The notes below the pieces were generated by a model. It searched no databases and was not told where the DNA came from. It saw only the letters and a program-made list of their open reading frames with translations. A DNA stretch of 64,000 bases, taken from assembly GCA_032718475.1 (NCBI GenBank), contig JAUCBJ010008896.1:202330-266329 (forward strand), read 5' to 3'. The first letter of the stretch is position 1. Every line of letters starts with the position of its first letter. This stretch comes from Nemertoderma westbladi. Taxonomy: Eukaryota; Animalia; Xenacoelomorpha. This document shows, one piece after another, positions 12,446 through 53,189 of the stretch. Made by a program: the position numbers and the translations under genes.

Positions 12446-12634
12446 ATGTACATGGCTACTTAAATGATAAATTATAGGGACATTGCTATCACATCAATTA
12501 GTAGTAAAATTCTAGAATTAGTATATCATGACCAATTTGGCGCAAAACTAAGTACTTCCAATTCACAATTTGGCTTAAAAAATAAGTTAGGCACAGAATT
12601 ATGCGTATACACTTTAAAAGAAATCATACAGTAC
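12440..12634 (+). pseudogene. CR1/L2-group LINE RT, left piece
   Basis: NYRDIAITSISSKILE..QFGLK..GTELCVYTLKEIIQY joins YLDNDSPIYICFIDSSKAFD at ~34164. Confidence 0.85.
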
Positions 12635-12707
12635 ACTAGTAATGGTTACCCCTTTTCTGTGACAGTTGGACCAACTTCACACCTTAGGTGTTAAGTAGGT
12701 CATTAAT

Positions 12708-13342
12708 TGTGACGGGATCAAAGGACCCCGACCGGGTAGATTGTTTCGTACGCGTCACCGCAGGCTGGGATGTCACTGATTGTTTGGCCGAGGCCGTTAG
12801 AGAAAACTGAATTGAGTTAATGTTGTTGTTCGACGGACTGATATGATATTGATGGCACAGTTGAAATGATATATTTAGTTAATTGGATGCAGAATAAGTG
12901 ATACCGGTAATAGTAACTAAACAGCCAATGTTGTTGATAGTGACGGTGAAGGTGAAACAACATCACCCATCTGCACTGAAACTGATAACTGAGTAAACTG
13001 AATGATAAACCAGTAGCAAGGAGATAATATACGACACACCAATATTACTTCACTGCTACTTTACTTTGGCCTCCTTCGCCCTTATTGGCTAATAACCTAC
13101 TTCACACCTTTCCACTCTCTGGGAGTGTTTCCCCCCTGTTGCTAGCCCCTGCTAGCTGTCTCCCCTTCCGAGGTGGTTTGACCTCTAACCTCCCTTTGTG
13201 TGTGGCTTTGGGGTTTGTACTGTCCCCAATGTTGGTTGTGATACGAGATTAGTTACTGCTAATCTCGTATCTCCAACATATTGCTGAAAATGCCACTATC
13301 CTATTTTATGAGGGTAATGCGGCGGAATTGAATCCGCTTACA
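12708..13342 (-). repeat. 3' LTR of the BEL element (635 bp)
   Basis: Reads TGTAAG...GTCACA on the minus strand, preceded by PPT gggggggag. Ends in gatcccgtcaca like the LTRs at 45356 and 51891. Confidence 0.85.
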
Positions 13343-14086
13343 CTCCCCCCCATGCTATCTTCCTGGTGAGAAGATAGCATCATCTACAAGTGCGCTTCAA
13401 TTCCGCTGGAACCAGATCTACTATCGGGTATGGGGTGGAGTTCTTTTCTCGGAGTAGGCTTTCCAGGCCGCTCCCTCTGGGTATGATATAACTACCCCTT
13501 CTTGGTGCAACCGAAACCTATGTTGCACCAAGACATCTGACGTCTCTGTTCGAGACAATTGTGGACTCCTCTCACACAATTTTTATATCTCCTCACTCTA
13601 AACTGACTCTAACTTTAGCTCCACTCTAACTCCACTCTACTCTATCTTACTCTCGGACCTCTCTGTCCCTTACTCTCCCTCTTACTGCTCGTTCCCCACA
13701 TTTTAAATTGCACCCGTATACTTTCCACACGCGTCAACACCTCCTCTCACTATCTTCCCTGTGCTCCTGTACGCAACCCTTACTTGTTTCGCTCTACTCC
13801 TTCCTGACGAGCTTCATCCTCCCTTTCCGTGCCGTCGCACTCAAGAAGTGTGATTCGTCTAGTGTCTCGTCCTCCTGTCATAGTCAATTGGTCCCCAGTC
13901 CCAGTAGCTAGTTGGAAAAGGTTACATGACTATAGTACTTACTTTGATTATATTGATTCTAATTATACTCTATTGATTATTACATACGTACATACTAATT
14001 GCACTTTTATTAAATTTGCACTTAGGAGTTCGTATTGCTTCGCATGTGGTGCCTTCCAGGCATCCCCACATCTCCCCCTCCAAGTC

Positions 14087-15031
14087 CTAGTTCGCTCCTC
14101 CCGTCTTTGGGAACCATCTCAGTTCCTTCCCTCTGTTGTCGTCCTGTCTCGGTCGCTTCCTTGTTGTCGTCGCTTCCTTGTTCTTATCCTCCTTAAGGCT
14201 CCTCATTCTCGCCGTTACCTCCTTGCTGATCCCCGTGGTCGATTCCTTGGGCGCTGGTGTTATTAGCTCCCGGTATCGCTTCGCAGGTGGCCCTTCTGAA
14301 TGCCCCTCCTGCTTCCCCCTAGTAGCGTCCCACAAGATCATCTTCATGGTCCGTGGCACATGCTCCGCCAGGAAATCTCTGAACTCTCCCCTGTTCTCTG
14401 GCGCCCATCTATCTAAATACCTCTGCGTATTGATGACTCCACCATACGATGCCGCCGTCGCTACTTCTTGATAAGTAAATGGAAGTCTCCTCTTAATGAT
14501 TTCCAGATGGGCCTCCTGGTTAATATTGAATAAACCCCAACGGAACTCCTGGGCCTTCATTCTCTGCCGCGTCATGACGCTGACGTTGGCCCACTCCTCA
14601 AAGATCTTAAACTTCTCCTCATCGTCCATCCAGTCGCACTGGTGCCCATAGTGCCCCCGGAAGTTACACTTAGAACACCGGTTGTGTAACCACGGACACG
14701 CCCCCATCCTGTGACTCGACTCGCGGCAGTAGAGGCAACTCGTCCCCTTCTGGAATCGATACAAACAGCTCTTTTCCTGGTGAGTAAGCCTCCCGCAGTA
14801 ATCGCAGCCGTGTATCAACACATCCCGCCCCAAGTTGTCTTTTGCCCCAAGCGGTCTCCTAGGTCTATGGAGCCGTTGGTAAGCAAACTTCTGGACGTTA
14901 ACGTCTCTGTCCATATCTACGTCCTCGTCTCGCCTTGGCATCGTCTCTCCAAACACTACACTGTGGTGCCGTTCCTGGTTGCTCGCCCAACCTGATGGTG
15001 CTCCCCGCGAAATCCATCGTCGGCTCTTCAT
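14087..15031 (-). CDS. Protein with three CCHC zinc knuckles (extra ORF of the BEL element; possibly fused to the upstream exonuclease)
   Basis: CDYCGRLTHQEKSC, CLYCRESSHRMGAC and CSKCNFRGHYGHQC, each C-x2-C-x4-H-x4-C. Confidence 0.75.
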   Translation of the reverse strand: MKSRRWISRGAPSGWASNQERHHSVVFGETMPRRDEDVDMDRDVNVQKFAYQRLHRPRRPLGAKDNLGRDVLIHGCDYCGRLTHQEKSCLYRFQKGTSCLYCRESSHRMGACPWLHNRCSKCNFRGHYGHQCDWMDDEEKFKIFEEWANVSVMTRQRMKAQEFRWGLFNINQEAHLEIIKRRLPFTYQEVATAASYGGVINTQRYLDRWAPENRGEFRDFLAEHVPRTMKMILWDATRGKQEGHSEGPPAKRYRELITPAPKESTTGISKEVTARMRSLKEDKNKEATTTRKRPRQDDNRGKELRWFPKTGGAN

Positions 15032-16665
15032 GCACCCAGGCCCGCTTGCCGGGTTTATCCCAGAAGGCCCTCGCCCCGCTGGCCGTCACCACTCCCCCGC
15101 CAACCCAGTCCGTGTCTGAGTGGCCGATCCTCTCGATGGGCGGCATCTCCACGAACTCGTCGTCATCCTCATCCCCCGCTGGGAGTGGATCCAAACCCGG
15201 TATCCCGGCAGACCCACTGTGTCCCTTCCCACCTTGGCTCTTGCCCGTAACTTTCCATCCTTCCAGTTCTCTCGGTCTCTTTCTCGCGAAATCGCCCTCA
15301 GAGCCCGCTGGCATGGGCATCGCTTGCAATCCTGATGTTATCTGTTTCGGCGATTCTTCCGTCCATTCTAGCTCCTGCCCCAGAGACTCACCCGAGCTCC
15401 CTGATCCCCACCGTAACTTGTCCAAGTTCTGGGCCTCGAACCCGTAGTCCTCTTCTCTAGCTTCCGCCTCTCTTTCGTCTGCCTCCCTCCTTTCTCGCCT
15501 GGCGATTTCTTCCAATCGCTTCTCCTCTAGTCTATCCACCTCTAGATTCTCCCACCTCTGATATGGCGTATCCACCTCCCTGTCTACTAGATATCGGCAG
15601 TTATAGTATACCGACTCGCCCTTCAGCCCCGGGTGGTCTGCCAGACCCTCAAAGGCCACCTTGAAGGCTCTTCTGTAGTTCAGGGGTGATCCCGACAGCA
15701 GAAATGCCGTTGGCTCTCTTCCGATAACCAAGGCCATGAATAGGTTTAGTAAACCTATCATTATCCAATCCTCCTGCAGGATATATTGCTTCTGATATAT
15801 CTTTATCACTCCTCTCCAGAATTGATACACCTCCTGTTTCCCTGGCCTCGCTCCCCACTTCAGCGAGTTCGCCAACTCCGCTCTGTACTCCTCCCTGAAT
15901 TTACCCCAGTCCATCGGCTTGTGGCAGACGAGCCCCATGAGCTGGCCCATCGCCACTGCTCCGCAATGTCCTGTATTCTCTACCAATCCCAACCCGGCTG
16001 GCCCTGTCATGGCCATGTAGACCGTTTGCATGTCCAGGAGGTTGGGGGTCTCCGGTCCGACGATCCTCTCCGCATCGTCGCGGATCGCCGATCCCACCTT
16101 CATCGTCGACTTGTCCCTCACTAGGTTCTGCACCGCCCTTGGCAACTGGTTCAACTTCGGCCCACTCTTCTTCCCATACGTTCCCAGATCAAACAGGAAT
16201 ATGTCCCCATTTGGCGCAGCCAAATGCAGAAGTATGGTCCTGGCCGAACCCGCCGACCCTCTTCTCAAACCCTCATCGTCTTCCATCGGTCCCTTCGTCG
16301 TCTAGGACCATGTATCCTCCCCTGCTGACAGACTCTACGAACCTCTTCCAGTCCTTTCTTGGTGATTCCCTCGGATACTTCGGTATCCCGAACTTCGCCT
16401 CGTCTCCCTTCACTACGTAATGGAAATGCTCGAGGATCGCGTTGTCTAGCGACGGCGTCCCGTAGGTCCCGACCAGCCTCCTCTCGTGCACCTCCCTGAA
16501 ATGGTCCTGCAGCGCTCGCGCCTTGTGACCCTTCTCTAACCGCTCGTAGTATCCCCTCGTCTTCTCCTCCGGATGCCTCTGGGTGAAATCTACTAGTATC
16601 TCCTTTCCACCTCTTTCCGCCTTTCTCTTCCTGACAAGTCTCTCCGCCATTACGAACTCTCCCAA
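14898..16665 (-). CDS. DEDDy (WRN/EXD/Mut-7-like) 3'-5' exonuclease-domain protein, one frameshift near 16285
   Basis: ExoI YMVLDDEG (end of the 16273-16665 ORF), then LLHLAAP..IFLFDL..LP..V..LV.D....KVGSAIRDD (ExoII), LLDMQ, W...IYQKQYILQED (ExoIII-like). Confidence 0.7.
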
Positions 16666-17099
16666 TCACTCACCCACAAGGTGGTGCCTTACCAAGGCTC
16701 AAAGTAGATGAGTGATGTAGTTAAGATGGTCTGTGCGGTCCGATAATGGCCTATCTCTCTCAGAACACTAGGTTTTATGTTATATTTCACCTATGTACCC
16801 ACCAAAGTACTAAATTTTCCTAAATTCCCTAAATCTGTCAGTTGCTTTTATTATGTTCTAGAATTTTCTGCCTACTGTTACCATAATTTGTTGAATTTTA
16901 TTTTAATACTAATTTTTAATCCTACTACTGTGCTATTGATACTCATAATGGATTATTTTTGTCTAAATAACCCCTATGGTTTGCATACAGGGTAGACTAG
17001 CTATTCCCTACTGTGCTAGTCCGCACCAGGTAACCTCCTGGCCCTGTATCAAACATTCTGACCTATTCTATGGGCTGCGCAGTACAGTAGTCTGTCTCG

Positions 17100-17510
17100 T
17101 ACTACCAGTACTCTACTAACGGTACTACGTACCCTCTTACACTCTAACTCTACTAACGGTACTACGTACCCTCCTACTCTCTAACTCTTACTAATGGTAC
17201 TACCTACCCTCTTACACTCTAACTCTTACTAACGGTACTACGTACCCTCTTACTCTCTAACTCTTACTAACGGTACTACGTACCCTCTTACTCTCTAACT
17301 CTTACTAACGGTACTATGTACCCTCTTACTCTCTAACTCTTAGTAACGGTACTACGTACCCTCTTACTCTATAATTCTTACTAACGGAACTACGTACCCT
17401 CTCATTCTCTAACTCTTACTAACGGTACTACGTACCCTCTTACACTCTAACTCTTACTAACTCTTACTAATGGTACTGCATACCCTCTTAATCTCTAACT
17501 CTTACTAACT
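17100..17510 (-). repeat. ~38-bp tandem array with ~10 GGTAC-x3-GTACC hairpin units
   Basis: Repeated ctcttactaacggtactacgtaccctcttactctctaa; homologous to 49870-50275. Confidence 0.9.
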
Positions 17511-17678
17511 TCTATCTGCCTACTTACTTACTACTACGTACTGTCTACTATTACTTTCTCTTTCTAACTTTCTACTATTTTATTATTTTTTTTTTATTTT
17601 TTTTTTTATATTTTGTGTGGGAAGGGCGTCTCGCCCTCAATCCCACCCCCCTCAGTCCAACACTTGGACGACTAAACT

Positions 17679-19018
17679 TTATGGTGCCCCTTCTAGTAGG
17701 CAGCACTTTCCCACAGCCCTCCTGTAGGTCTTCCTATCCTTTGCTCCTATCTTACCCCCTATCCGCACTTCCACCGATCGGACTCTTCTGTCCTCGTTGG
17801 GGTAAGTGTCTACTACTCTTGCTAGCCTCCACTGATTGTTGATGATTGCGTCGTCAGTGACGATCACTAAATCACCTTTCTTTAACTCTCTAGTGATGTT
17901 TCTCCACTTACTCCTCCTGTGTAATGTGGGTAGGTATTCCTCGACCCACCTCCTCCAGTACTCTGCGCTTATCGCCTTGGCGACTTTCCAACTCTGGCGG
18001 GAGTGTATGTCATCTGGGTCTACACCCTTCATGTCGATGGTCGCCGGCCTTTCCATCAGAAAGTGGCTCGGTGTTAGCACGTCTAGTGATTCCGGGTCGT
18101 CATTCTCTGGATATAGCGGTCTGCTATTAATGATTCCCTCACACCTAGCTAGCACCATTCTTAGAATGTCCTCTGTCACCATGTGGGTGTTCATCAACTT
18201 CGTCATCAGACGCTTGGAACTACCCACAAGTCTCTCGACGCATCCTAATGTATGTGACGCATACAGCGTCCTCCTTTCCCACTTCACCTGTCGTCTCCTC
18301 ATGGCTGCCCTGACCTCTTCTCCTTCTAGGATGTCCAAGGCCTCCGCCAACTCGTTCTCCACCCCCACAAAGTTGGTTCCATTGTCGGAATAGATCACTG
18401 CGATCGTCCCACCTTTGCGGTCTCTAAATCTCTCTAAGGCATTGATGAATCCCGATGCCGTAGCGTCCTGGGCGAGTTCTATTCCTACCGCCCTCGTGTT
18501 GTTACATACGAAGATGATGCCGTATCGTTTCTCCATGTGTCGCATCACCTTGATCTTAATCGGCCCAAACATGTCTACTCCGCAGTGCGTGAATGGCGGG
18601 TCATGCTGTCTCACCCTACTGGCCGGTAATGCATCTCCTGTACGGCCCTCTCCTTTCTCTTCCGTCGGCAGGTCTGGCATTGCCCCACTACCGCCTTCAC
18701 CTTCTTTCTTAGCTTCGCGAGCCAGAAGGTCCTCCGTATCTCTGTGTGGGTCTGGTTGGTGCCTCCGTGCAATATCGACTTGTGGGAGTCCCAAATGATC
18801 TGGTGGACTATCAGCGATCTGTTGGGGATGATAATGGGTTTTGGTGGGTTGATAAGGCTGTTGTTATTCAGCACTCTGGAGTTCATCACCAGAATCCCGT
18901 CATCATTGAGTTGTGGTGACAGCGTGATGAGCTCGCTGTCCCGACGAAGATGTTGCTGCTTGCTAACTCGATCCACTTCGTCGCAGCAGTTCTTTCTCTG
19001 TTCGTACCGTATCACGGC
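17679..19018 (-). pseudogene. BEL/Pao integrase (frameshift ~18610)
   Basis: H..HGG..CQTC (HHCC), PFTHCGVDMFGP, SDNGTNFVG, GCVERLVG, INSRPL, LTPSHFL, YWRRW..EYL, WRLARV. Confidence 0.92.
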
Positions 19019-19020
19019 CT

Positions 19021-19562
19021 AAACCACAGCCACAGCCACAGCCACAACCACAGCCACAACCACAACCACAGCCACAGCCACAACCACAGCCACAGCCACA
19101 ACCACAACCACAACCACAACCACAACCACAGCCACAGCCACAACCACAGCCACAGCCACAACCACAGCCACAACCACAGCCACAGCCACAACCACAGCCA
19201 CAGCCACAACCACAACCACAACCACAGCCACAGCCACAACCACAGCCACAGCCACAACCACAGCCACAACCACAGCCACAGCCACAACCACAGCCACAAC
19301 CACAACCACAGCCACAGCCACAACCATAGCCACAACCATAGCCACAACCACAGCCACAGCCACAACCACAACCACAACCACAGCCACAGCCACGGCCACA
19401 GCCACAGCCACAGCCACAGCCACAACCACAACCACAGCCACAGCCACAACCACAGCCACAACCACAACCACAGCCACAGCCCCACAACCACAGCCACAAC
19501 CACAGCCACAACCACAGCCACAACCACAACCACAGCCACAGCCATAGCCCCAACCACAACCA
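19021..19562 (+). repeat. (CCACAG/CCACAA)n hexamer microsatellite
   Basis: Direct inspection. Confidence 0.95.
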
Positions 19563-19960
19563 CTTCCTAGCTCTAGACTGAATCTAGTGTACACTAGCTT
19601 TGACTCTCCCAGCTATAGTGATAGTATGCAACCTTGGGAGTTAATGTGCGGTCTTATGAGTAAAGGGCAAGAGATTAGACTTCATGTTGCCTCCATTGAT
19701 TCACTCTTCTTAACTTTATAAAATAACTCCACCCTTATTTAAAGTTTTAAAAGTTATGACTTAGTCGACTAATTTTCCAAAATATATTATAAAAAACATA
19801 TAATTTCTTGAATAAATAGACCTAATAGCAATAAATATTGTTGGCAAATACATTTATAATACTAATATAATAATTAAGGATAAATACTCCTAATACCAAT
19901 ATAATTGTTATGGATAAATAGTTCTAATACTATTATGAAAGGAACTCAAACAAACAAATG

Positions 19961-21025
19961 TCAATAGTGTCCTCCTGCGCGGGCATATACTGTACGAGAG
20001 TTTTTCATCATAGGTCTTCGAAAATAAGTAAAAGCTGGTTGATTTTCTTTACTTTCATCTTCCTCATTAACCAACTGTTTCTTAATTTTATTCAATTGTT
20101 CATTAATTTTCAGTAATTTACTTTTATTTCCCAGAACCTGTCTTAATATCTCTTCTCTATTTTCCTCATTTTCTTCCATTTGTTTAATAAATTTCCGCAT
20201 TTGATTTTTGTTTCCTAATATTTGTCTCAATATCTCTTCTTTATTTTCATCATTCTCTTCTAAATGTTTAATAAATTTCTGTAATTTAATTTTACTTCCT
20301 AGAACTTGGGTCAATGTCACCTCTTTATTTTCTTCATTTTCCTTCAAATGTTTAATAATTTTCCGCAATTTATTCTTATTTCCAAGTAATTGTCTCAATA
20401 TTTCCTTATTATTATCATTTTCATCATCTTCTTCACTTTCCTGACCTTCACTTTCTTCGTCCTCTTCCTGACCTTCACTTTCTTCGTCCTCTTCCTGACC
20501 TTCACTTTCTTCATCCTCTTTCTGACCTTCACTTTCGTCATCCTCTTCCTGTTCTTCACTTTCTTCATCCTCTTCCTGTTCTTCATTTTCTTCATTCTCT
20601 TCCTGACCTTCGCTTTCTTCACCCTCTTCCTGACCTTCACTTTCTTCGTCATCTTCTGACCTTCATTCTCAACCTCACTCTCTTCAACTTCATCCTGACC
20701 CTCACTATTTTCATTCTCCATCTCATCGTCCTCTTCTTCTTCATCTTCCTCACTCAAATTTTCATCATTTTCTAGGGGTAACTGTTTTTGTATCCCTTTC
20801 AAAATATTCATAACTTTATGAAATTTATTTTCCATTGTCTGTTTTATCTTTAATATATCACGCTCAACTCTCTTTTTCTTTTCTCTTCATAAAAATATCT
20901 CGGATTTTTTAATTTCTTTGGTAATGGTCCATTACACCTTCCTTTCTATGTATACTCATATGGCGGGATATACTGTCTCGTCTCATTTCTTTATTACAAA
21001 CCAAACATCTTTCATAACTAGGCAT
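19961..21025 (-). pseudogene. Zn-finger + acidic/coiled-coil protein, paralog of 24602-25246
   Basis: Starts atgcctagttatgaaagatgtttggtttgt (MPSYERCLVC); near-identical to the 24602 start; frameshifted; repeated ILRQ.LGNK.KL.K units. Confidence 0.75.
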
Positions 21026-21271
21026 TATATAGCAATGTCAATTGATATTATGAATTTTCGCTGAATGATTTTACAAAATTTTAAATAAATAAAACTTTTA
21101 TGAAAATAAATAAAACTTTTAAAAATAAAAATTAGAGAATGAATGGGAATGCGGTGAATGGGGGCTATTATAGAGGGAGGCTAGAATGGAGTTGTGAAAA
21201 AAGAATAATCTATTGTAAACCAGATGTTTCTTGAATTTTTCTCAGGCGTATTTGTCAATAAAGTGGGTGAA

Positions 21272-21480
21272 GGTTGTGGTTGTGGCTGTGGCTGTGGCTG
21301 TGGCTGTGGCTGTGGCTGTGGCTGTGGCTGTGGCTGTGGCTGTGGCTGTGGCTGTGGTTGTGGCTGTGGTTCTGGCTGTGGTTCTGGCTGTGGCTGTGGC
21401 TGTGGTTGTAGTTGTGGCTGTGGCTGTGGTTGTGGCTGTGGTTGTTGCTGTGGTTGTGGCTGTGGCTGTGGCTGTGGTTT
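21272..21480 (+). repeat. (TGTGGC)n microsatellite, inverted relative to 19021-19562
   Basis: Direct inspection. Confidence 0.95.
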
Positions 21481-21979
21481 AGTTAGGATGGGAAATGGGG
21501 TGATTTGAGAAGCAGGGAGTGCGCTGGAGAAAAGTGCGTGTAATGAATGGGCTGCTGCGTCAAAATGGGTATGTTAATTAATGTTATACTACAGTATCTG
21601 AACAAATATTTTAGGTATGGTATAGCAAGCATGAGGGGTTATGCATTACTTCAAACATAAAACTACAGTAACTAGTATAGAGATGGTTGGGGATTAATTT
21701 GACATATGGTATTTGGGTACTGGCTTTGTCGTTGAGCTAATACTTGGAGTGTGCGGTTGGGCGCGCAGGCTGCTTCGCAACACAATGTGAAAGAATGCAA
21801 TCTATTGCAAGACCAGATGTTTATTATAATTTTCTTAGGCGAATTGACAATGGTCTGACATGATAACGAAGCTGGAGGTTTAAATAATTTAAAATGTGTG
21901 CAACCCCATGTTGGCATGCAGTATAACTCAACATGGGATTCAGTGGGATGCTTAATCCTTCACGCATGCCATACCAAAA

Positions 21980-22070
21980 ACTATGTCCTGTTTGAAATGT
22001 TAAGGTGGACCTTTCTATATAAATAAAACCATGTAAAGTTAGATCATTATCTCTAAAAAACATTAAGTGA
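21980..22070 (+). promoter_or_regulatory. Conserved TATA-containing upstream block of the GTSF1-like genes
   Basis: tgtttg..aatgttaaggtgga..tttctatataaataaaa..ca.gtaaagtta.atc lies ~100-130 bp upstream of all three ATGs (also reverse complement at ~32545-32620 and ~33305-33390). Confidence 0.65.
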
Positions 22071-22125
22071 AGTTTTTCAAAGTTTTTTTTAAAGTAAATC
22101 TTACTAAATTTGTCTTTTTGTTACT

Positions 22126-22413
22126 ATGGAGTACTTTATTTGCCCCTATGATGCCACGCACCGGATTCATTCGGAGAAATACGTCAAACATCTAAGAAAA
22201 TGCCGCAAGAACTTTCCTGGCCAAAAAATGGTACAGTGTCCCTTTGAAGTTGCGCATAGCTTTAGAGAAGCCGAAAGGGAACATCATCTACAATTTTGTG
22301 AATACAGAAATAGGAGCTCCATTTTTGAGAAATTAAAAGAAGAGAAAAAAGTGGAGAAGAAAGGAGAAGAAATTGAATGTCCGGCGGCATGGGGAGAAGA
22401 GGTGTGGGATTGA
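22126..22413 (+). CDS. Gtsf1: GTSF1/Asterix-like double CHHC zinc-finger protein, 95 aa
   Basis: CPYDATH-x9-H-LRK-CRKNFP and CPFEVAH-x9-H-LQF-C; C-terminus AAWGEEVWD; intronless and intact. Confidence 0.88.
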   Translation: MEYFICPYDATHRIHSEKYVKHLRKCRKNFPGQKMVQCPFEVAHSFREAEREHHLQFCEYRNRSSIFEKLKEEKKVEKKGEEIECPAAWGEEVWD

Positions 22414-22775
22414 TGTGATGATGCGATTCTCCGCACCCTAGTATAAATTGTTATGTAATTATTATTGGTGTATAAATTGTATGTACTTGGCGATTAATAA
22501 TTGGTGCAGCCATGTATATTGTATTATTGTTCCTATTGTATTGCATATTTCATCTGCTGTAGTACAATCTATTCAACTCGCGTCCCTATCTGATTGATTT
22601 ATGTCAAATTAAATTGCCTTTGGCAACATTATTTGATACAAATCGATTGATTAAACAATTAATTAATTGTTTAATCGACCAATTAATTAATTGTTTAATT
22701 AATTAATGACCTACTTAACACCCAAGGTGTGAAGTTGGACCAAACTGTCGCCGAGGATGGCAAACCATTACTACT

Positions 22776-23333
22776 TATAGGGTATCTCGTCTTCTCATTG
22801 TGCAGCCACCCAAGCACTACCATGGCAGTAGTGTGTCTCCACTATGTTGGGTATAGTTTCCATCAAGTAGGCTGTGGCTCTTACTCCTAATCTTGCAGCT
22901 TATATGCTTTCTTAAGTATCTGTTTCCCCTTGACTAACAGTGGGGATGCTAGGCCTAAGGGATCGTATATCATGCTATGTACAATACATAGCCCCTCTTT
23001 GTGTGGATCTCCGTGCCCTCCTGGCTCAGTTGGTACTGGAACTCGTCTGTCTCCCGGTTCCACACGATCCCCAGCGCCTTCTGCTGAGACTCCACTCTCT
23101 TGTCCACCATGTCCTGTCCCTTGGCTGTCATGGGGTTGTCCATGGTCGACTCTGGCTGCCTGTCCTCTATGGCTTTCATAAACTCCTCTGAGCTGGACTG
23201 AAACTTGGTCAGGTTAAATCCGGATCCTTTCAGGATGTCGCGAACCTCGCGCCCTGTAATAATTTCTTTAACCGTATTTCCAGATTCCATCCCGTCGTCT
23301 ACATAGAAGCCGCGTCGAATAATATCGATCGCT
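22776..23333 (-). pseudogene. BEL/Pao RT to RNase H fragment
   Basis: GFYVDDGMESG, GFNLTKFQSS, KALGIVWN..D, YDPLG, VVLGWL. Confidence 0.85.
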
Positions 23334-23936
23334 TTGAGCAGGGGGGCCCATATCGAGCGGGGCCCAAAACATAAATTACCCTTTCAGGAAAATACGTGGG
23401 CCAGTTTGGCCCTTTCTCAGTCCCCGAATAATCTGAGGAGCAAGACTAATCCCTTTGAATCTTGTATGTCAACGGTAGGTGGGGATTGCGCGAATTGTAA
23501 ATTATTTAAACCTCCAGCTTCGTTATTATGTAAGATTGGAAACCTTAGGTTTACATCTTACGCGCCAGCATTAACCCCAAATCACACATAGGCCAACTAC
23601 AACCTTGGGCCATATGAGGTTAGCTGAATGTGTGACACACTATTACCACTACTGTATCACTACTATAAACCCTATTACAGTACCAGAGCTACTGTAGTAG
23701 AGCTTGAAACTTTTTGAAGTAGGTTAGATCATGGAAGTTATGAATATGTTATGATTGATTAAGTTACGAGGTGGAGTGGGAAGGACTCTTATTGGTTAAT
23801 AAAAGTCTTTAAGTTCATTACAATTTTCCTCACCCATTATTATATTTAATTAAGATGTTTATAACTTTTTATTCTTTTTGATAGTAATTCTTATCCTGCT
23901 TATTATTTTTATAAATATTTTCTGATTCACTTGAAA

Positions 23937-24258
23937 ATGGACGGGTTTATTGTTGATTTTCAATACCATGTACTCAACGACTCATTTTATTCCGTAATAT
24001 TTAAAGAATTTATGGTTTATGATTGAAGATTGATTGAAGAATGAACTTAGAATAACTGCGCAACTACTGGAAATATTTGGAATAAATAAGAAATTCATTA
24101 ACCCTAAAGCAGATTGTCATTTCCACATTAATGCTAACTGTCCTTTTCACATTGACACTAGGGATGGTTGTATGAATTATTGTTCTGTCAAGCTAACTGT
24201 AGGGTTTGCAAATTATATTCTTAGATGGAAGGTGGATTCTTTTCTACAAAGAGTATAG
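23937..24258 (+). pseudogene. Polinton accessory DEDD-fold/Maelstrom-like remnant
   Basis: MDGFIVDFQY..IFKEF* then, in another frame, CPFHIDTRDGCMNYCS. The N-terminus is paralogous to 44931(-). Confidence 0.5.
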
Positions 24259-24601
24259 GATAAAGCTCTATTATTGTGAGGGCATCAAGGCATCAACTTA
24301 GTACCGCACCTCACTCCCTAATAAGGGAGTGAGGCAAGTCTCTTGTCATGTTTGCCTAACTTTGTGCCTCACTATACCATGCACAAACCTCACTTAATAA
24401 GCGATAACCTCCCATATATAAATTTCAATTATTAACATTAATCTTTAAACATTAAATTTGAACTATTAATAATGTTCCATCTTCTGATATATATTTACTG
24501 AGATTTATATTTGTAAGTGAATCCCTAGCTAAACAAACTGAAAATTTTGAAAAAATATAGCTGTAGACATTTAAAAACATAATACAGTTTTCTTTCATAA
24601 A

Positions 24602-25246
24602 ATGCCTAGCTATGAAAAATGCATGGTTTGTGATAAAGAATTGAGACGAGACAATATATCCCGCCATATGAGTATACATAGAAAGGAAGGTGTAATGGAA
24701 CCTTCTCCAAAGAAATTAAAAAATAATGATGATATTTTTAGTGAAGATGAGAACAAAAAGAGAGTTGAGAGTGACTTTCTAGAGATTAAATAAATGATGA
24801 AATATAAATTTGAGAAAATCATGAATATTTTGAAAAATATACAGAAACAGCCACCTAGTGAAAAGGATGATGAGAGTGAGGAAGATGATAAATCAGAGGA
24901 AAGTGAAAAGGTTGAGAATGATGAAACAGAGAGTGAGATAGAGGAAGAAGAAAATGAGAGTGGTGATGAACAAAATGAGAGCGAGAAAGAAGTCGAGGAA
25001 CATGAAAGTGGGGAGGAGAATGATGAGGAGATATTAAGACATGTATTAGGAATTAAAAATAAATTGCAGAAAATAATTAGACAATTGAATGAAATGCAGA
25101 AACATTCGCATAAGGAGAGTGATAATGATGGAAATGAGAGTGATGAGGATGAATTGGAGGAGAGTAATGCTGGTAGTGTAGAAGAAGCTGAGGAGAGTAG
25201 CGACGGCAGTGAGGAAGAATCAGAGGAGAATGACAATGAAAATTGA
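24602..25246 (+). pseudogene. C2H2-like finger + highly acidic protein (in-frame stop at ~24791)
   Basis: CMVC..RH..IH, KKLK NLS-like motif, D/E-rich tracts. Confidence 0.7.
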
Positions 25247-25536
25247 CAGAAAATCAGAGTAGGGAATGGAAAAGTTATATCTCCAGTAACTGTTGTATAC
25301 CGGCCTAGGAGTATGAACAGTCATACAGTTAATGCGAGACATTAATTATAACTGATTGTTTGAAATATTTATTATATTTAGTCGTATTAATTATGTAATT
25401 TCATAATAATATGTTTAATTAGACAAATAAAGTCAACTTGATCCTATTTTAAATGCATAATGAATGGGTAACCAAAACATCAAATTAGTTAACAAGACAG
25501 ATTTTGACAACAGATAAACAAATATTCTCCTGTGGG

Positions 25537-27645
25537 GATTGATTGATTGATTGTTTATTGTCAGCACAGTAATACATTTATATACATTATTACACCAATA
25601 AAAACATAATACAAGATAAGATCAATGTAGTGCAGACCGTGGGTAAAATAAATAATTATACATTCGAATATAGGCCGTGTGAGACTGATAAGTACGTACA
25701 TAGTAGATTATGTCATTAAAATAGCACAATAAGTTAATAAGGGAGGATATATAAATAAATAATTAATCCACAAATAACTAGCGCCTCGTGAGTGTCCTTC
25801 AAAAATTACAATAGATCAATAAATTATCGAAGCGTAAAATTCAATAATCATTCCCCATTTGGTAAATCATTTTTGCTACATTTATTTGGTCGTCCATGTC
25901 AAATAGGGTGGTCAGATCGTTCCAGTTACCTTTAACCGATAATCTAGATTCCGCCGTTTTTGGGCACACGGTGATGATGTGTTCCTCCGTCTGAACTGCT
26001 CCACATCCACACATTCGATTATCCGGTTTTACTCTCGCCCATCTCATTTTTTCGACTGGAAAGTTATGGCTCCCCAGACGAAACCGGGACCACGCGATTC
26101 GGTGACGTTCTGGAACGTTACAGTTGTTGTAAAGAGGTGGCGGTGACAATGTCGGATTCATCAACTTGTAGAGATGCCGTTTCGTGGTCTTAGATTTAGA
26201 GACACGGTCTTTAAGTAATTCGTTTTGTTTTCTAATGTAGTTCAATGGAATTGATTTAGAGCGTTCCATTTCAGAATACATCGGAGTGTTATTTTCTCTA
26301 GCGATTTCCAGAGCAGTTTGTAAGGGAGAATCATCGACTGGTTTAAATTTTATGAGATACTTCCTCTGTTTATCGCGAATTAGGGACTCAAATTCTGGGA
26401 GGTCGAGTTCGATTAGGCATAATTCCCCGCATGTGGTTGGTCGTACACCTAATAATAAACGAACCAAGGACATATATATTTTAGATATAGGTGCTAGGGA
26501 TCCGCCGAACCATGTTTCACAGCCATATGTGATTGAGGATAAAACAGCTGCTTCGAATACTTTCCGTTTTATAACAAATGGGAGATCGGGGTTTTTACTG
26601 ATAAAAGTAGAGAACTTGAGAAGATGGCACTGTTTCTCGGAGGCGTGTAGTGCGATCGCTGTTGAGATTGCACCATCAGCCGAAATTGGCGAGCCCAGGT
26701 AAGTGTAGGAATCCGTGTGTTCGATTTGTTTGTCTCCGATGGAAAATGCACGCTTGTCACAGTCGTTTCCATTTATAACTATAAATTTAGTTTTTTTGAT
26801 ATTTATAATCATCCCAGACTGGGAGCAAAAGACTTTCAGAACGTTTAATTTCTCAATTATTTTATCTCTGGTTGTACCGAGTATGGCTGTGTCATCCATC
26901 AGTAAAATGCTATGAAGCTTTTTCAACCAATCGTCCCATGGTAAATTTCGTAGTGCTCGTACAAAAAAATCTATTACAATTACAAATAGGAAACCGCTTC
27001 CTGGGGAACCCTGACGGACTCCTTTGTTACAAATTACACGAAGATTGTTAATATTGGCAATAGTTAACTTGTACATCGCTTGGAGGCAGCTGAGCATCTT
27101 ATTACCACATCCTAAACTTTTTAATGTTTGGAACATGAAGGTCCTCTTGACGTTGTCGTATGCTTTCTCGTAGTCCACGAATGTAATATAGAGGATTTTC
27201 TTATACACTTTGGCATAATCACACAGGATACGAATAGCTAGGATCTGTTCAATGCAACCACGCCCTTTACTTGCCCCAGCCTGTTCTGGGAGCGGTTTAT
27301 ACCATGAATGGAGTCTAACAGTGAGCACCGTGTCAAAAAGCTTTGGTAAGCAGTTCATTATACTGATGCCTCTGTAATTAGTTGGTAAGAAACGGCAGCC
27401 CTTTTTGAAAATAGATATCAGTGTAGCGTGGGCCCACATTACTGGGTAGATTCCTGAATTAAAAACTAAATTAAATAGCAGAGATATAGAAATTAACCAA
27501 TTAAGTGGGAGCGCTTTGATGTAATCTGCAGAGAAGACCATCTGGCCCTGAAGCCTTACGTGAACTCAATTTTGAAGCAGCAGCTGCAACTTCGTTAATT
27601 GATATCTCTTCATCTAATAGTGGTATTGACAAATTTGTTGTAATG
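25537..27645 (-). mobile_element. 5'-truncated RTEX-like LINE with (CAAT)n tail
   Basis: ORF 25841-27541: NYRGISI, FVDYEKAYD, GVRQG, LMDD, YLG, RFRLGSH..CGC..EEH..C. AATAAA and (caat)n at 25537-25560 on the minus strand. Confidence 0.88.
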
Positions 27646-27663
27646 TTGTGAGGGAGAAGTGGC

Positions 27664-29597
27664 CTCACTCACTCACTCTCTCACTCTCTCAATCTCTCAC
27701 TCTCTCACTCTCTCACTCTCTCACTCTCTCAATCTCTCACTCTCTCACTCTCTCACTCTCTCACTCTCTCACTCCCTCACTCCCTCACTCCCTCACTCCC
27801 TCACTCCCTCACTCCCTCACTCCCTCACTCCCTCACTCCCTCACTCCATCACTCCCTCACTCACTCACTCACTCACTCACTCACTCACTCACTCCCTCAC
27901 TCCCTCACTCACTCACTCACTCACTCACTCACTCACTCACTCACTCACTCACTCCCTCACTCACTCACTCACTCACTCCCTCACTCCCTCACTCCCTCAC
28001 TCCCTCACTCCCTCACTCCCTCACTCCCTCACTCACTCACTCACTCACTCCCTCACTCCCTCACTCCCTCACTCCCTCACTCACTCACTCACTCACTCAC
28101 TCACTCACTCACTCACTCACTCACTCACTCACTCACTCACTCACTCACTCTCTCACTCTCTCACTCTCTCACTCCCTCACTCCCTCACTCCCTCACTCCC
28201 TCACTCCCTCACTCCCTCACACCCTCACTCCCTCACTCCCTCACTCCCTCACTCCCTCACTCCCTCACTCACTCACTCACTCACTCACTCACTCACTCAC
28301 TCACTCACTCACTCACTCACTCACTCACTCCCTCACTCCCTCACTCCCTCACTCACTCACTCACTCACTCACTCACTCACTCACTCACTCACTCACTCAC
28401 TCACTCACTCACTCACTCACTCACTCACTCACTCACTCACTCACTCACTCACTCACTCACTCACTCACTCACTCACTCACTCACTCACTCCCTCACTCCC
28501 TCACTCCCTCACTCCCTCACTCCCTCACTCCCTCACTCCCTCACTCCCTCACTCCCTCACTCCCTCACTCCCTCACTCCCTCACTCCCTCACTCCCTCAC
28601 TCCCTCACTCCCTCACTCCCTCACTCCCTCACTCCCTCACTCCCTCACTCCCTCACTCCCTCACTCCCTCACTCCCTCACTCCCTCACTCCCTCACTCCC
28701 TCACTCCCTCACTCCCTCACTCCCTCACTCCCTCAATCCCTCACTCCCTCACTCCCTCACTCACTCACTCACTCTCTCACTCACTCACTCACTCACTCAC
28801 TCACTCACTCACTCCCTCCCTCACTCCCTCACTCCCTCACTCCCTCACTCCCTCACTCCCTCACTCCCTCACTCCCTCACTCCCTCACTCCCTCACTCCC
28901 TCACTCCCTCACTCCCTCACTCCCTCACTCACTCACTCACTCACTCCCTCACTCCCTCACTCCCTCACTCCCTCACTCACTCACTCACTCACTCACTCAC
29001 TCACTCACTCACTCACTCACTCACTCACTCACTCACTCACTCACTCACTCACTCACTCACTCACTCACTCACTCACTCACTCACTCACTCACTCACTCAC
29101 TCACTCCCACCCTCACTCCCTCACTCCCTCATTCCCTCACTCACTCCCTCACTCCCTCACTCCCTCACTCCCTCACTCACTCACTCACTCACTCACTCAC
29201 TCACTCACTCACTCACTCACTCACTCACTCACTCACTCACTCACTCACTCACTCACTCACTCACTCACTCACTCACACACTCACTCACTCACTCACTCAC
29301 TCACTCCATCACTCACTCACTCCATCACTCACTCACTCCCTCCTTCACTCCCTCACTCCCTCACTCCCTCACTCCCTCACTCCCTCACTCCCTCAATCCC
29401 TCACTCCCTCACTCCCTCACTCCCCCACTCCCTCTCTCCCTCAATCCCTCACCCCCTCACTCCCTCATTCCCTCACTTACTCACTCCCTCACTCCCACCC
29501 TCACTCCCTCACTCCCTCACTCACTCCCTCACTCCCTCACTCCCTCACTCCCTCAATCCTTCAATCCCGCACCCCATCACTCCCTCACTCACTCCCT

Positions 29598-29670
<73 letters not shown>

Positions 29671-29720
29671 CCCTCACTCCCTCCCTCCCTCCCTCCCTCC
29701 CTCCCCCACTCCTGCCTCAC
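27664..29720 (+). repeat. (CTCA)n/(CTCACTCC)n/(CT)n microsatellite
   Basis: Direct inspection. Confidence 0.97.
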
Positions 29721-31122
<1,402 letters not shown>

Positions 31123-32196
31123 ATTAAAACACTTCTTATTAGTGAATGTTTTCGCCCTAACCGGGCTACTTCAGACTATAATGCAGTATTAGGAATGTAT
31201 ATAGTTAAAATTATTGCATCCCACCACCAAATCAATATTCCCTCTCTTTTATAATATTGGGTTCTGTCATAAACTAATAAGGGTACGTAAATAGCATAAA
31301 TGGAGAGAAATAGAAATATATATACAGTAGTTTAACTAGAACTATCATTATTAAATAAGGAACAGAAACATCATTAAATGAAAATAAAGTAAATACCAGA
31401 TATAGACTAGTTAGTTAGGTTATACAGTAGGCTTTAGAGATAGCATGGTTACTTCCAACGTATTGTGCACAAATACAAAACAGAAACCTCCGGATGGTGA
31501 AAAACGCAGAGTACAACGGCATTAATAGTAATAGATCTATGCGCAAATAGACAAAAACACAATAAAAATATACTTATAATGTGTACAGTAGGGTGAGAAA
31601 ACGGTTTATGGTAAGGTTATTAAATGTCAAAAAATTGAAAAATTAATTCAATGATACAGTATATATTGTCCAATTGGATTGACAACCAAAAATATAGAAT
31701 ACAATAAACAAATTATAAGACAGCATGATACACTACCTACTAATTGTTGGTGCTGGCGTACATAGCAGACTCAATATTCACAAAGAGAACTATAATCAGT
31801 ACAGTGATTTACTGAGGTACCATTGACAGTTAAAATTTCGCGGTCTGAGGAACGCCATGTAAAACAAAAAAATTAATATTTTTTACATTAATGCACATCC
31901 CTGAACTATCACAAAAATACAAAGACAATAATAATAGTGCGGTTTATACGTTGTGGTAAAAGGCAAATATCGAAATCGAGAAATGTTACCCTTACAACAA
32001 AAAGCAAGTATCGAAATATAATGTGTATCGAAATCCCATTATACTGTTAGTGTGTTGTACAAACAATCCTTATGGCGAAAGGTTAATATTGAAGACGAAA
32101 TATATAATGTGTTTAAGGGTATATGCGCTATACAGTACACGGTATTAAATAGGGTTTAGAATAATAGGGTCTAATCAATCCATTCCAAACTAATGA

Positions 32197-32460
32197 TCAG
32201 CCCCACACCTCTTCTCCCCATGCCGCTGGCCGTTTAATCTCTTCTTCTTTCGAATTTTCGAAAAGGGAACTCCTATTCCTATACTCGCAATATTTTATGT
32301 GGTGTTCCCTTTCGGCTTCTCTGAAGCTGTGTGCATTTTCAAATGGGCATTGTACCATTTTTTTGCTAGGAAAGTTCTTCCGACACTTTCTTATATGTTT
32401 CACATATTTCTCTGAAAGAATCCTATGTGTGGCATCGTATGGGCATATAAGATAATCCAT
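32197..32460 (-). CDS. Gtsf1: GTSF1-like double CHHC protein, 87 aa
   Basis: CPYDATH..KHIRKCRKNFP, CPFENAH..HHIKYC, AAWGEEVWG; close paralog of 22126. Confidence 0.88.
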   Translation of the reverse strand: MDYLICPYDATHRILSEKYVKHIRKCRKNFPSKKMVQCPFENAHSFREAEREHHIKYCEYRNRSSLFENSKEEEIKRPAAWGEEVWG

Positions 32461-32873
32461 AGTGCCAAAAAGAGAAATTTAATAGGATTTAATTTAAAAG
32501 AAAACTTTGTTTTGGAAAACTTAACTTTAACGTTTTTTAGAGATAATGATTTAACTTGATATGATTTTTATTTATATAGAAAGGTCCACCTTAACATTTC
32601 AAACAAGGCCGTAGTTTTTGGCATGGCATGCGTGAGGGATTAAGCAGTACATAAAACTGCGGTAGTAGAGGCGGTTGAGGATTAATTTAATGGAGACAAC
32701 ATATCAAATATGTCTGTCCTTCCCATTGTCCCTATAGCTCGCATTAGCTCTATTGCTCCCAAAACTACAATAAATTGCATTAATTAATAAAGATTTTAAT
32801 AATAATATTTTTACAGTACTAAACCAAACCAAAACAAAACAAACTAAACTAAACCAAACCTAGTCCATCAGTC

Positions 32874-33206
32874 TCAATCCCAAGCTTCTTCTCTCCATTC
32901 CGTCGGCCATTCGCATTGTTCTTGTTCTTGTTGTACTTTTCCCTCATTCTCTCCATATTGATTCTTTAACTCTTTCTCAATTCTGAACTCATGAGCTTGC
33001 CAACATAGTGGTAACCCATTCCTATAATGACAATTCTTTATGTGAAACTCCTTTTCTTCTTTTGGAAAACTGTGCACTGGATCGTTGGGGCACTCTTTGA
33101 CAAACTCAACCCCCGGCTTTCTACATATTATTAGATGCCTAAGCACTCGAGCATCGGCGACTCTGTGGGAAGGGTTGTAAGGACATATTTGATATGTCAC
33201 CTCCAT
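32874..33206 (-). CDS. Gtsf1: GTSF1-like double CHHC protein, 110 aa (divergent paralog)
   Basis: CPYNPSH..RHLIICRK, CPNDPVH..FHIKNC, tail EWPTEWREEAWD. Confidence 0.85.
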   Translation of the reverse strand: MEVTYQICPYNPSHRVADARVLRHLIICRKPGVEFVKECPNDPVHSFPKEEKEFHIKNCHYRNGLPLCWQAHEFRIEKELKNQYGENEGKVQQEQEQCEWPTEWREEAWD

Positions 33207-34157
33207 TGTTAGTTTCTATATTTAAGAATAACGTGTTGTAGAATAAGAATAAGAATAAGATTTTACTAGGAATATTAAGAAGTTTTACTAAGGCAGTAAA
33301 AACAATTAAGATTTAACTTTACGTGATTTTTATTTATATAGAAAAATCCACCTTAACATTTAGCACACCACAAACAAGGCCGTAGTTTTAGGTATGGTAT
33401 GGCAAGCACTAGGGATTATGCATTACTTCAAACATAAAACTACAGTATCTAGTATAGAGATGGTTGGGGATTATTTTAACATATGGTTTTTTGGGTAGGG
33501 CTAATACTTGGAGCGTGCGATCATGCGTGCAGGATGCTTCATAAAGTACAATGTGAAAGAATTCAATCTATTGCAAACCAGATGTTTATTGTAATTTTCT
33601 CAGACGATTTGACAATGGTCTACATGATAACGAAGCTGGAGGTTTGAATAATTTAAAATTCGTGGCAGCCCCATGTTGGCATACAGTATAACTCAACATA
33701 GGATTCAATGGGATTAGTCATGCTACGTCTAATAAGAGCCCAAACAGTCTCAGATTATTGGGGGACTGAGCCAAGGCCAAACTGGCCCACATATTTTCCT
33801 GAAACGGTAATTTATGTTTTTGGCCCCGCTCGCATCTTTATATTTCATTCTATCATTCTATTGTACGAAAAAAATAATACAAATGTACTGTATATTGTAT
33901 TGTATGGTACCTATTGTATTGTATATTTTATCTACTGTACCTACTGTAGTACTACTATCTATTCATTGCGCGTCCCATGTCTGATTGATTTGTGTCAAAT
34001 TAAATTGCCTTTGACAACATTATTTGATTCAAATCGATCGATTAAACAATTAATTAATTGTTTAATCGACCAATTAATTAATTAATTAATGACCTACTTA
34101 ACACCTAAGGTGTGAAGTTGGTCCAACTGTCGCAGAAAAGGGGTAACCATTACTACT

Positions 34158-35538
34158 CAGTACTATTTGGATAATGACAGCCCAATTTATATTTGTTTTA
34201 TAGACTCTTCTAAAGCCTTCGACTTAGTTAATCACTATGAATTATTCTCTAAATTAGTTGATCGCAATATTTCTACTTTTCATATTAGGATTATCAGGTA
34301 TTGGTATCGTTTTCAAACTCTTACTTTACTTTGGGGCAGGTGCACTTCTAGTAGTTTTACGGTAACAAACGGGACAAAACAAGGGGGGATTCTATCTGGT
34401 TATCTGTATGCTGTTTACGTAGACGACCTTAGTAGGGAACTTAACAATACTAATGTAGGTTGTCAACTTAATAACCGTAGGTGTAAGTAATCACTTAATG
34501 TACACTGATGACCTGTCTTTAGTTTCTAATTCCATAGCTGGTCTTAGAAAACTTATTGATACTTACATAGACTTTGCAGATAGGCACTCCATCATTATAA
34601 ATATTAAGAAATCTAAGTTCATGACCTATACACCAAAATTATACAATTTATATATATATATATAGCCTTGTAGATGGTATCAGTATTTAATGGTAAATCA
34701 ATAGAAACTGTAAGTAAATACAAGTACTTAGGCCATACTTTCCACAACACAACTGATGACAATTATAATATCCTTAACCAACTGTCAAGTCTTTATAGAA
34801 GAGGAAACTTTTTAATACGTAAATTTAGCTATTGCTCAAAAATTGTCAACATAAAACTTTTCAGGTCACTTTGCACTCAGATCTACTGTAACTCCCTATG
34901 GGCGAGAAGTAATTTTTCACTCTCCATATATAGTAAATTCCGCATTGCATATAATAATATTATTAGAAAACTTTTTGGTTTTAGTTACGATTCCAGCGTA
35001 TCTTACATGTGTGGTATACTGAATGTACCCAAATTAGTACATATCTGTCACAATGCGCAGAAATCATTATTGAGATGCATGAGATCATCAGAGAATAGCC
35101 TTGTACAGTCAGTTGCCTTAGAAACGCTTCAAACGAGTCACATATTTGGTATAAGTCTGTGCAGGGAATAATTTGCTTACAGTTCTTATATTGTTATGTG
35201 TTATGTTATAGTTATTTTATTGTCCTTTGTTCTAATATTATATATTTTCCATAATTATACCTATTATACCCTCTATATTTATTATATTATATACTTACAC
35301 CCTTTTAGTATAAATTTCTAGTATAAATAATACTTAACATTTGCATTTATTTTTATTTTTTTTTTTTGTCCTTGCTCGGATATTTTCTTGTTTCCCTTCC
35401 GTTGTAATTATTACCTATTATATTATATTATAATTATTATGTTATAATTATACTACAAATATTATTATCTAGCCACTGGGATTTTACTGTACTATATGGG
35501 CTATGTATGCCTGGATTAAAGATTAATAATAATAATAA
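34158..35538 (+). mobile_element. CR1/L2-group LINE, right piece with 3' UTR and (AAT)n tail
   Basis: FIDSSKAFDLV, NGTKQGGILS, YTDDL, KYLGH, RIAYNN; ends gattaataataataataa, where polB resumes. Confidence 0.85.
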
Positions 35539-37164: not shown

Positions 37165-37484
37165 ATTATACTAACTATATTATACTAATATACGTGTAGC
37201 GTATATTAGACTGATTTGAATATATAGGCCGGCTACCGGTTTTACGGCAGTCTGGTTAGATTGGACTGGCAGAACCGTTCCATCATTACATATGGCGCAG
37301 TTTCAGTACTTACCTACTTGCCCATGCAGTACTGCACTTTGTACACGGCCTAACTCACAACTCTGCAATTGCTACCGCACTTTATTCATATTACCTTAAT
37401 AAATAATATCGGCAATTAATTTCGTAATAAACTATTTCTGTATTTGCTGATACCGTGATACGGATATTTGATATTGGATAGGCT

Positions 37485-40400: not shown

Positions 40401-40520
40401 CCCACCGACTTAATCCTGACCCAGGAAGACGAGACGGACCGCGAATACATAATAAATGCGGCCATCGGCGCGATCCCAACCCTCGACTCCCGGGACGCCT
40501 GTCTCCAGGTAATTCGTGAG
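37485..40520 (+). CDS. Gag-Pol (Gag with CCHC, protease, RT, RNase H)
   Basis: CRHCKLVGHYDRMC, LSDSGANIS, VRITVDLRELN, RMPMG, IVEDIII, LRSFFGL, TNAS, ELEAL, ADAFSR. Confidence 0.9.
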
Positions 40521-53110: not shown

Positions 53111-53152
53111 TGTTGCGACATTATTTAAAATTTTTACAAAATATGAATATTA

Positions 53153-53184
<32 letters not shown>

Positions 53185-53189
53185 CACTA

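Follow-up and report, generated by a model that had tools for sequence, protein, structure and literature searches.

A deleted Polinton-type element of Nemertoderma westbladi carries conserved, shortened GTSF1-like genes, candidate mimics of a PIWI cofactor

The 64,000-nucleotide stretch of Nemertoderma westbladi DNA analysed here (contig JAUCBJ010008896.1, positions 202,330 to 266,329 of the forward strand; hereafter the window) contains, at positions 12635–34157, a transposable element of Polinton type that we call the GTSF element, after two short genes in it that resemble the PIWI cofactor GTSF1/Asterix. A fragment of a second element of the same kind, the sister element, lies nested within it and carries a third such gene. 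The GTSF element is a derivative and not an autonomous Polinton/Maverick, the core genes (protein-primed DNA polymerase B (PolB), rve integrase, ATPase and capsids) being absent, and the GTSF1-like genes are under purifying selection. The interpretation that we favour, tentatively and at a little under an even chance, is that this deleted Polinton/Maverick-type element has kept as its only intact genes shortened, conserved mimics of GTSF1, which would occupy PIWI or Tudor partners and so blunt the silencing of the element family.

Boundaries and coding capacity of the GTSF element

Masked self-comparison, Pfam scans and six-frame reading showed the window to be repeat-rich DNA with insertions nested in one another. 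From the outside inwards, the order is an outer decayed Polinton, a long interspersed nuclear element (LINE), the GTSF element, long terminal repeat (LTR) elements and the sister element. The LINE interrupts the polymerase gene of the outer Polinton and is itself interrupted by the GTSF element, into which an LTR element, a BEL/Pao element and a second LINE have been inserted, with the sister fragment lying within the BEL/Pao element.

The original prediction had defined the element by terminal inverted repeats (TIRs), AGTAGT-type ends and a 6-bp target site duplication (TSD), and all three were confirmed. The TSD, CAGTAC, is found at 12629–12634, where it sits in the reverse transcriptase (RT) frame of the LINE, and identically at 34158–34163; an exact 6-mer match at both flanks is expected by chance with a frequency of about 2e-4. 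The RT frame reads ...IIQY on the left of the element and QYYLDNDSPIYICFIDSSKAFD on the right, from where it runs on to ...DSSKAFD (RVT_1 E 6e-13), so that the LINE frame is continuous across CAGTAC, as expected if the element inserted precisely and 6 bp of target were duplicated. Over its outer 72 bp the left TIR (12635–12706, plus strand) is identical to the right end at 70 of 72 positions (97%). The right long TIR spans 33621–34157 (minus strand) and ends in AGTAGT, whereas the left end reads ACTAGT, with one change. An inner part of the left long TIR is found at 23354–23532 (plus strand) and matches 33832–33621 with 74% identity, which indicates that the TIR was once several hundred bases long and that its left arm has been broken by LTR inserts with partial loss.

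With the nested inserts removed, the DNA belonging to the GTSF element itself totals 5300 bp, the borders of the LINE insert being approximate, in line with the original estimate of about 5.3 kb. This is the present size; deletions have occurred at the locus, and the size at insertion may have differed. No polymerase, integrase or capsid gene was found in this DNA, as had been claimed. The longest stop-free frame in the element's own segments has 236 codons and runs antisense to an acidic open reading frame (ORF) described below, and tblastn comparison of three own and sister segments with 15 Polinton-like viral loci gave 0 matches, whereas pieces of the outer Polinton did match.

The assignment to the Polinton type, also part of the original prediction, holds on account of the ends, the TSD, and a gene with a 'VDFQ' motif and a regulatory block that are both shared with the neighbouring outer Polinton, which bears PolB, integrase and ATPase sequences. 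The block lies at 56634–56899 (plus strand) in the outer Polinton and corresponds to the promoter and subterminal blocks of the GTSF element over 70–260 bp with 67–77% identity (E to 6e-15). No TIR matching that of the GTSF element was found at the outer Polinton by comparison within the window, and the outer Polinton is therefore a relative and not a proven helper.

The GTSF1-like genes

Gene a (32197–32460, minus strand; 87 aa; PF05253 E 7e-13) and gene b (32874–33206, minus strand; 110 aa; E 3e-12) lie in the GTSF element, and the sister copy (22126–22413, plus strand; 95 aa; E 3e-8; PDB 6x46 E 9e-13), with two CHHC fingers and a Trp tail, in the sister element. All three frames are open and intronless, all three proteins pass the PF05253 cut-off, confirming the predicted family by a profile search, and all 8 CHHC zinc ligands are present in each. 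The fingers are followed in all three by a W-x-E-E-x-W motif and then by a single residue before the stop, although the correspondence of this motif with individual Trp positions of mouse GTSF1 is insecure. The best PDB matches are mouse GTSF1 (E 1e-13) and silkworm GTSF1 (E 1e-12), with U11-48K far weaker. Structure prediction, which the original prediction had proposed, agrees with this: in the model of the b protein (predicted local distance difference test score, pLDDT, 79) the mouse and silkworm GTSF1 structures come out first and second in the fold comparison (E 2e-3 and 9e-3), neither reaching E 0.001.

A profile search of 1.84 billion representatives returned 1069 matches at E<=0.001. 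Twenty of these were looked up, and the 12 with a named representative are animal GTSF1-like or uncharacterised animal proteins, bar one with a domain label only. The fingers of the element proteins are no more than about 52% identical to those of any of 142 tandem-finger relatives (150 matches minus 8 without a match to the regular expression), and no near relative of b or of the sister protein came up in word-seeded protein searches. The three proteins form one clade both in a quick tree of 145 rows (SH-aLRT support 93) and in a finger-only tree of 44 rows (support 93/92), each built from few columns, and the stem branch of the clade is long in the 145-row tree. The proposed capture of a GTSF1-family gene is thus borne out, with a single origin for all three copies; neither tree places the donor.

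Host-type relatives that bear the Trp motif have a median tail of 144 residues, and only 5 of 81 stop within 5 residues of the motif. In comparison with the 142 relatives, the second finger and the linker of the element proteins are remodelled, and the second finger contains residues that are rare among them, with Ser at +7 in 1% and Glu at +3 in 0%. The basic patch of finger 1 is largely kept. Residues equivalent to R29, K36 and K39 of mouse GTSF1 are basic in 96, 97 and 85% of the relatives, and R26 in only 20%; of these four positions, three are basic in a and in the sister protein, two in the window copy of b and three in the dominant version of b in sequencing reads. The window copy of b has Ile at the K36 position, where the dominant version is basic in all three public runs described below. 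That b is RNA-binding-dead was considered and rejected, the change being private to the window copy. Judged from these residues, the element proteins look like binding-competent mimics, not broken decoys.

Two proteins of 106 aa, P0051 and P0133, were considered as members of the element group and rejected: they are adjacent to it at support 80, with a long-branch warning, and stand apart from it in the finger-only tree. Together with P0165 and P0166 they are GTSF1-like proteins of 106 aa that stop 1–2 residues past an acidic Trp; the ENA contigs that encode them are 15.8 kb and about 49 kb long, and the proteins are possibly independent mini-GTSF1 proteins of mobile elements or viruses. GTSF-like genes were not found in IMG/VR by alignment patterns, by a degenerate finger motif or with P0051 as query, nor in JGI metagenomes, and BFVD gave 0 matches at E<=0.001. 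The TIR of the element was likewise not found in IMG/VR or JGI metagenomes.

The window contains exactly three instances of TATATAAATAAAA, one for each GTSF1-like gene, 110–134 nt 5' of its start codon and within a TATA-containing upstream block that is the same at all three genes. This promoter-like block spans 21949–22125 (plus strand) at the sister gene, with TATATAAATAAAA at 22016, and 32461–32690 (minus strand) at gene a, with the TATA motif at 32566. At gene b the region 33207–33714 (minus strand) comprises the promoter-like block, with the TATA motif at 33328, and a subterminal block in common with 56792–56899 of the outer Polinton.

Purifying selection

Gene a and the sister gene differ at 50 of 261 aligned bases, and the differences are distributed 11/5/34 over codon positions 1, 2 and 3. 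A transition-aware estimate gives Ka 0.097 and Ks 0.78; the Nei-Gojobori ratio is 0.045, with a dS of 1.9 that is probably too high, and the range over the estimates is Ka/Ks 0.05–0.13. The dN/dS ratio, which had been suggested as a check, is therefore not near 1. The differences amount to 16 amino-acid changes, compared with a minimum of 24 in 10,000 neutral simulations, 83% of which gained a stop. Between b and the other two genes synonymous sites are saturated.

The two other cargo genes recognised in the GTSF element are both broken, while the GTSF1-like frames stay open. One is an ORF encoding a C2H2 finger and an acidic, coiled region (24602–25246, plus strand; zf-C2H2 E 0.08), with one in-frame stop. 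The other is a 'VDFQ...FKEF' ORF (23937–24258, plus strand), homologous to the gene beside the outer Polinton integrase (tblastx E 1e-4 within the window). The VDFQ gene may resemble the 'MAEL'-type genes of Polintons; its broken pieces had no Pfam, PDB or PHROG match, so that identity with MAEL (Maelstrom, DEDD fold) was not confirmed. The description of the GTSF1-like genes as the intact cargo thus stands, with three open tandem-CHHC ORFs (two in the element itself and one in the sister), to which these two broken genes, missing from the original prediction, have to be added.

The sister element and copies in public sequencing runs

The sister fragment (19564–22775, plus strand) is inserted in the BEL/Pao element. 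Its left end is lost; its right end, ...CCATTACTACT at 22775, also carries AGTAGT, and the fragment is 86% identical to the main TIR and 85% to the subterminal block. As it sits in a retroelement that itself lies in the main element, both carriers must once have been mobile. Its copy of the C2H2 and acidic ORF (19964–21025, minus strand) is frameshifted and 80% identical to 24597–24933. On either side of this segment, at 19024–19563 and 21275–21477, are inverted (CCACAG)n/(TGTGGC)n microsatellites, which suggest an inversion between them.

Three public DNA runs (X1, X2 and X3, from two samples and two studies, available as contigs only), one of which may be the source sample, were compared with positions 31200–35400 of the window. 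Among the matches listed (24 of about 1700 records), gene a is present in three versions in X1 (0, 13 and 25 differences), three in X3 and two in X2. Gene b is represented among them by one main contig per run, with 9–14 differences from the window copy, and the listed indels compensate. In all, the runs contain at least three further versions of the GTSF1-like genes. The right long TIR is very deep in these runs, and the summed depth of the last 560 bp is 27–124-fold higher than that of the genes, a ratio that does not give copy number and to which both TIR arms contribute. The claimed amplification consequently holds in part: the genes occur in more than one element, as seen from the sister and from the three versions of a among the listed contigs in two of the three runs, but the extent is modest when set against the depth of the ends. 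The region 33456–34160 is very deep in the runs, the terminal 600–700 bp belonging to a family of high copy number with numerous divergent inner ends. The public runs listed as containing matching sequence include none of RNA, which has no bearing on expression.

The outer Polinton and the nested retroelements

The outer decayed Polinton is large, extending over about 8800–57000 with PolB, the start of an integrase, an ATPase and a pX-like ORF, and it holds the whole nest. PolB fragments lie at 10164–12239 and continue past the LINE at 35579–36822 (plus strand); they match viral-contig PolB by tblastn at E to 9e-14 and 2e-16, the viral loci having been chosen by a PolB motif. One of the fragments falls at 0.96 into an Atlas cluster labelled DNA_pol_B_2 (PF03175), a family found on 24% of the cluster members. 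The integrase N-terminus, followed by the VDFQ gene, is at 44500–45357 (minus strand; E 3e-6 to the rve ORF of the viral locus L001). An A32-type packaging ATPase and a presumed pX-like ORF are at 52730–53795 (minus strand), and Pox_A32 (PF04665) is carried by 3 of 4 relatives of the ATPase. Two further, unassigned ORFs at 55060–56357 (minus strand) stand behind the block in common with the GTSF promoters, the position that gene b has in the main element.

Two small ORFs of the outer Polinton, at 42752–43150 and 43936–44335 (both plus strand), are paralogous (35% identical, E 1e-9), the second being split by a frame change. Both end in acidic tails that contain EENWE motifs, comparable to EENWD/EEDWD of host GTSF1; in the outer segments, translated over 34,098 codons, the pattern [ED][ED]xW[ED] is found nowhere else. 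Searches of Pfam, other libraries and the Atlas gave no family match for either ORF. From the motif, the tails are possible PIWI or Tudor hooks.

The insert that begins at 12707 is an LTR retroelement (12707–17680, minus strand; right border approximate), a related copy of the element at 45356–52436 by blastn (74% at 13084–13497) and tblastx. The latter, in which no RT or integrase match was found in Pfam, is young, with an LTR pair 99.6% identical, as is a second LTR element at 37188–42085 (98.1%). The BEL/Pao element is represented by an integrase part (17679–19018, minus strand; DUF5641, rve, Integrase_H2C2) and an RT/Peptidase_A17 part (22776–23353, minus strand) with a YVDD motif and a PF05380 match at E 5e-4, below the curated cut-off. 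The second LINE (25541–31116, minus strand) comprises an RT ORF at 25841–27541 (RVT_1 E 3e-29) and a 3.4-kb microsatellite detected by Tandem Repeats Finder; no TSD could be found for it, and its borders are therefore approximate.

Mechanism and alternative explanations

In the mechanism that we favour, a Polinton lineage would have captured a host GTSF1 once, cut just past the acidic-Trp motif, and duplication of the captured gene would have given types a and b. Produced in the germline under the element promoter, the proteins would bind target-engaged PIWI through the fingers and the Trp tail and, with the long host tail absent and the second finger and linker remodelled, would recruit no downstream silencing steps. 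To move, the GTSF element would need an autonomous Polinton acting in trans. Competition with host GTSF1 is preferred because the lineages in which selection acted were mobile and because weaker silencing would be to the advantage of a selfish element.

Several points weigh against this mechanism. The dominant-negative decoy proposed originally is not supported yet, as RNA- and PIWI-binding residues are largely kept and a small size is also found in the active silkworm paralogue BmGtsf1L. The equivalents of R29, K36 and K39 are kept in a and in the sister protein, and with the basic patch and the Trp tail both retained nothing marks the element proteins as dead. In mouse GTSF1, four basic finger-1 residues and three Trp residues that bind PIWI are needed to speed slicing, so that activation requires binding both to RNA and to PIWI (Arif 2022, PMC9385479). 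The naturally short BmGtsf1L has the same short design and works in piRNA (PIWI-interacting RNA) amplification; a Trp close to its end is essential, and it binds both Ago3 and Vreteno, a Tudor protein (PMC10711660). Some of the rare residues recur in the full-length relative P0038, and the donor may already have had them. The depth ratio suggests a large family of ends, few of which carry GTSF1-like genes. Finally, aligned non-coding blocks of the sister and main elements differ by only 8–10%, and the start of the C2H2 ORF has 7 differences in 93 bases, distributed 3/2/2 by codon position with no third-position excess; the GTSF frames may accordingly be older than the elements that carry them. 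As the flanks are closer than the frames, element lineages may have swapped frames, or strong constraint may act on the flanks.

The main rival is that the element proteins work as active GTSF1 cofactors, strengthening or redirecting slicing by PIWI, for instance against competing transposons or viruses, or towards cytoplasmic cutting and not nuclear silencing of the element. The retained RNA-binding patch and Trp tail and the existence of a short active paralogue in BmGtsf1L agree with this, GTSF1 paralogues can be PIWI-selective activators (PMC9385479), and each of the two divergent types could act with a PIWI protein of its own. A selfish element would nonetheless profit little from a stronger pathway able to target it, the second finger and linker are remodelled, and we regard this explanation as unlikely. 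Quite unlikely in our view is a benefit to the host, either through transposon-borne copies kept by host-level selection or through host paralogues captured after divergence: the copies lie in different, independently inserted elements amid nested repeats, the genes lack introns and have a block in common with another Polinton, and a conserved site is changed in the window copy of b alone. It must be set against this that hosts commonly have several GTSF paralogues (PMC9539491), that gene copies are few relative to family ends and that the GTSF frames appear older than their flanks.

The proteins might also have been repurposed off PIWI and serve the cycle of the element itself by binding structured RNA (tRNA or transcripts of the element) or some other partner, as nematode GTSF-1 binds an RNA-dependent RNA polymerase and not PIWI (PMC13650160), some GTSF paralogues bind through their fingers (PMC9539491), and the stem branch of the element clade is long. 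We consider this improbable, since the acidic-Trp tail, associated with PIWI and Tudor binding, is the sole part outside the fingers kept in all three copies. That the genes are neutral passengers, recently captured fragments devoid of function, is very improbable given the Ka/Ks of 0.05–0.13 and frames that have stayed open across saturating synonymous divergence; this is largely refuted for the lineage, and single present-day copies may be inactive. An extension of the mimicry mechanism, which we think doubtful, is that a Polinton toolkit imitating the PIWI silencing complex, made up of the two captured GTSF1 types, the MAEL-like gene and the two outer proteins with acidic-Trp hooks, jams piRNA-guided silencing. 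If so, an animal transposon would encode a suppressor of the piRNA pathway made from the host's own cofactor.

Comparison with known systems

Among transposon-encoded suppressors of silencing, the proven cases cited come from plants. A captured GTSF1 under selection is a small and concrete candidate that is suited to existing PIWI slicing assays. If it inhibits, it would offer a natural means of acting against PIWI complexes; if it activates, it would be a case of a transposon supplying host defence. While cargo capture by Mavericks and anti-silencing genes of plant transposons are already known, a transposon-borne GTSF1 is apparently new. No report of one was found in the available portions of the literature surveyed, including a 2026 review and meeting reports; Repbase and most subscription papers were outside the survey, and absence from print is unproven. 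GTSF1/CHHC is not among the adintovirus accessory genes described, and the part of the supplement examined has 0 mentions of GTSF or CHHC (Starrett 2021, PMC8502044).

The Arabidopsis transposon protein VANC, whose activity has been demonstrated, brings about DNA demethylation in a sequence-specific way (PMC5735166). Like VANC, the element proteins are transposon-encoded and proposed to oppose host silencing; the GTSF element differs in carrying a captured component of the host pathway, whose activity is putative. Among Polintons, MAEL genes are labelled on four adintovirus maps (Starrett et al., PMC8502044) and insect polintons have been grouped as 'mael-associated' (preprint 10.1101/2025.02.07.637071). 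These genes, too, are named after a piRNA-pathway cofactor, and the broken VDFQ ORF may be of their type, although the searches did not confirm this; they differ in being known by label in the sources cited. GTSF1 and Maelstrom gate PIWI jointly (PMC13618286; the title of PDB 9nhc names a PIWI-GTSF1-MAEL complex), and the present finding prompts a re-reading of the 'MAEL' genes on Polinton maps. Since plant transposons encode VANC and Polintons carry MAEL-labelled genes, there is precedent for an anti-silencing role.

Mavericks have an (AGT)2 or (AG)3 end motif, a 6-bp TSD and TIRs of 46–1447 bp (Barreat and Katzourakis 2021, PMC8097293), and the GTSF element resembles Polinton/Maverick (adintovirus) elements in its (AGT)2 end, its 6-bp TSD and a TIR length within that range. 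Mobile derivatives without polB and cargo genes are also known there (10.1101/2025.02.07.637071), and the difference is that no core gene is left in the GTSF element. With mouse GTSF1 and silkworm Gtsf1 and Gtsf1L, the element proteins have in common the tandem CHHC fingers, the basic patch of finger 1 and the acidic-Trp motif, and with BmGtsf1L also their size and the position of their end. They differ from GTSF1/Asterix in being intronless and transposon-borne, in stopping right past the Trp motif and in their remodelled finger 2.

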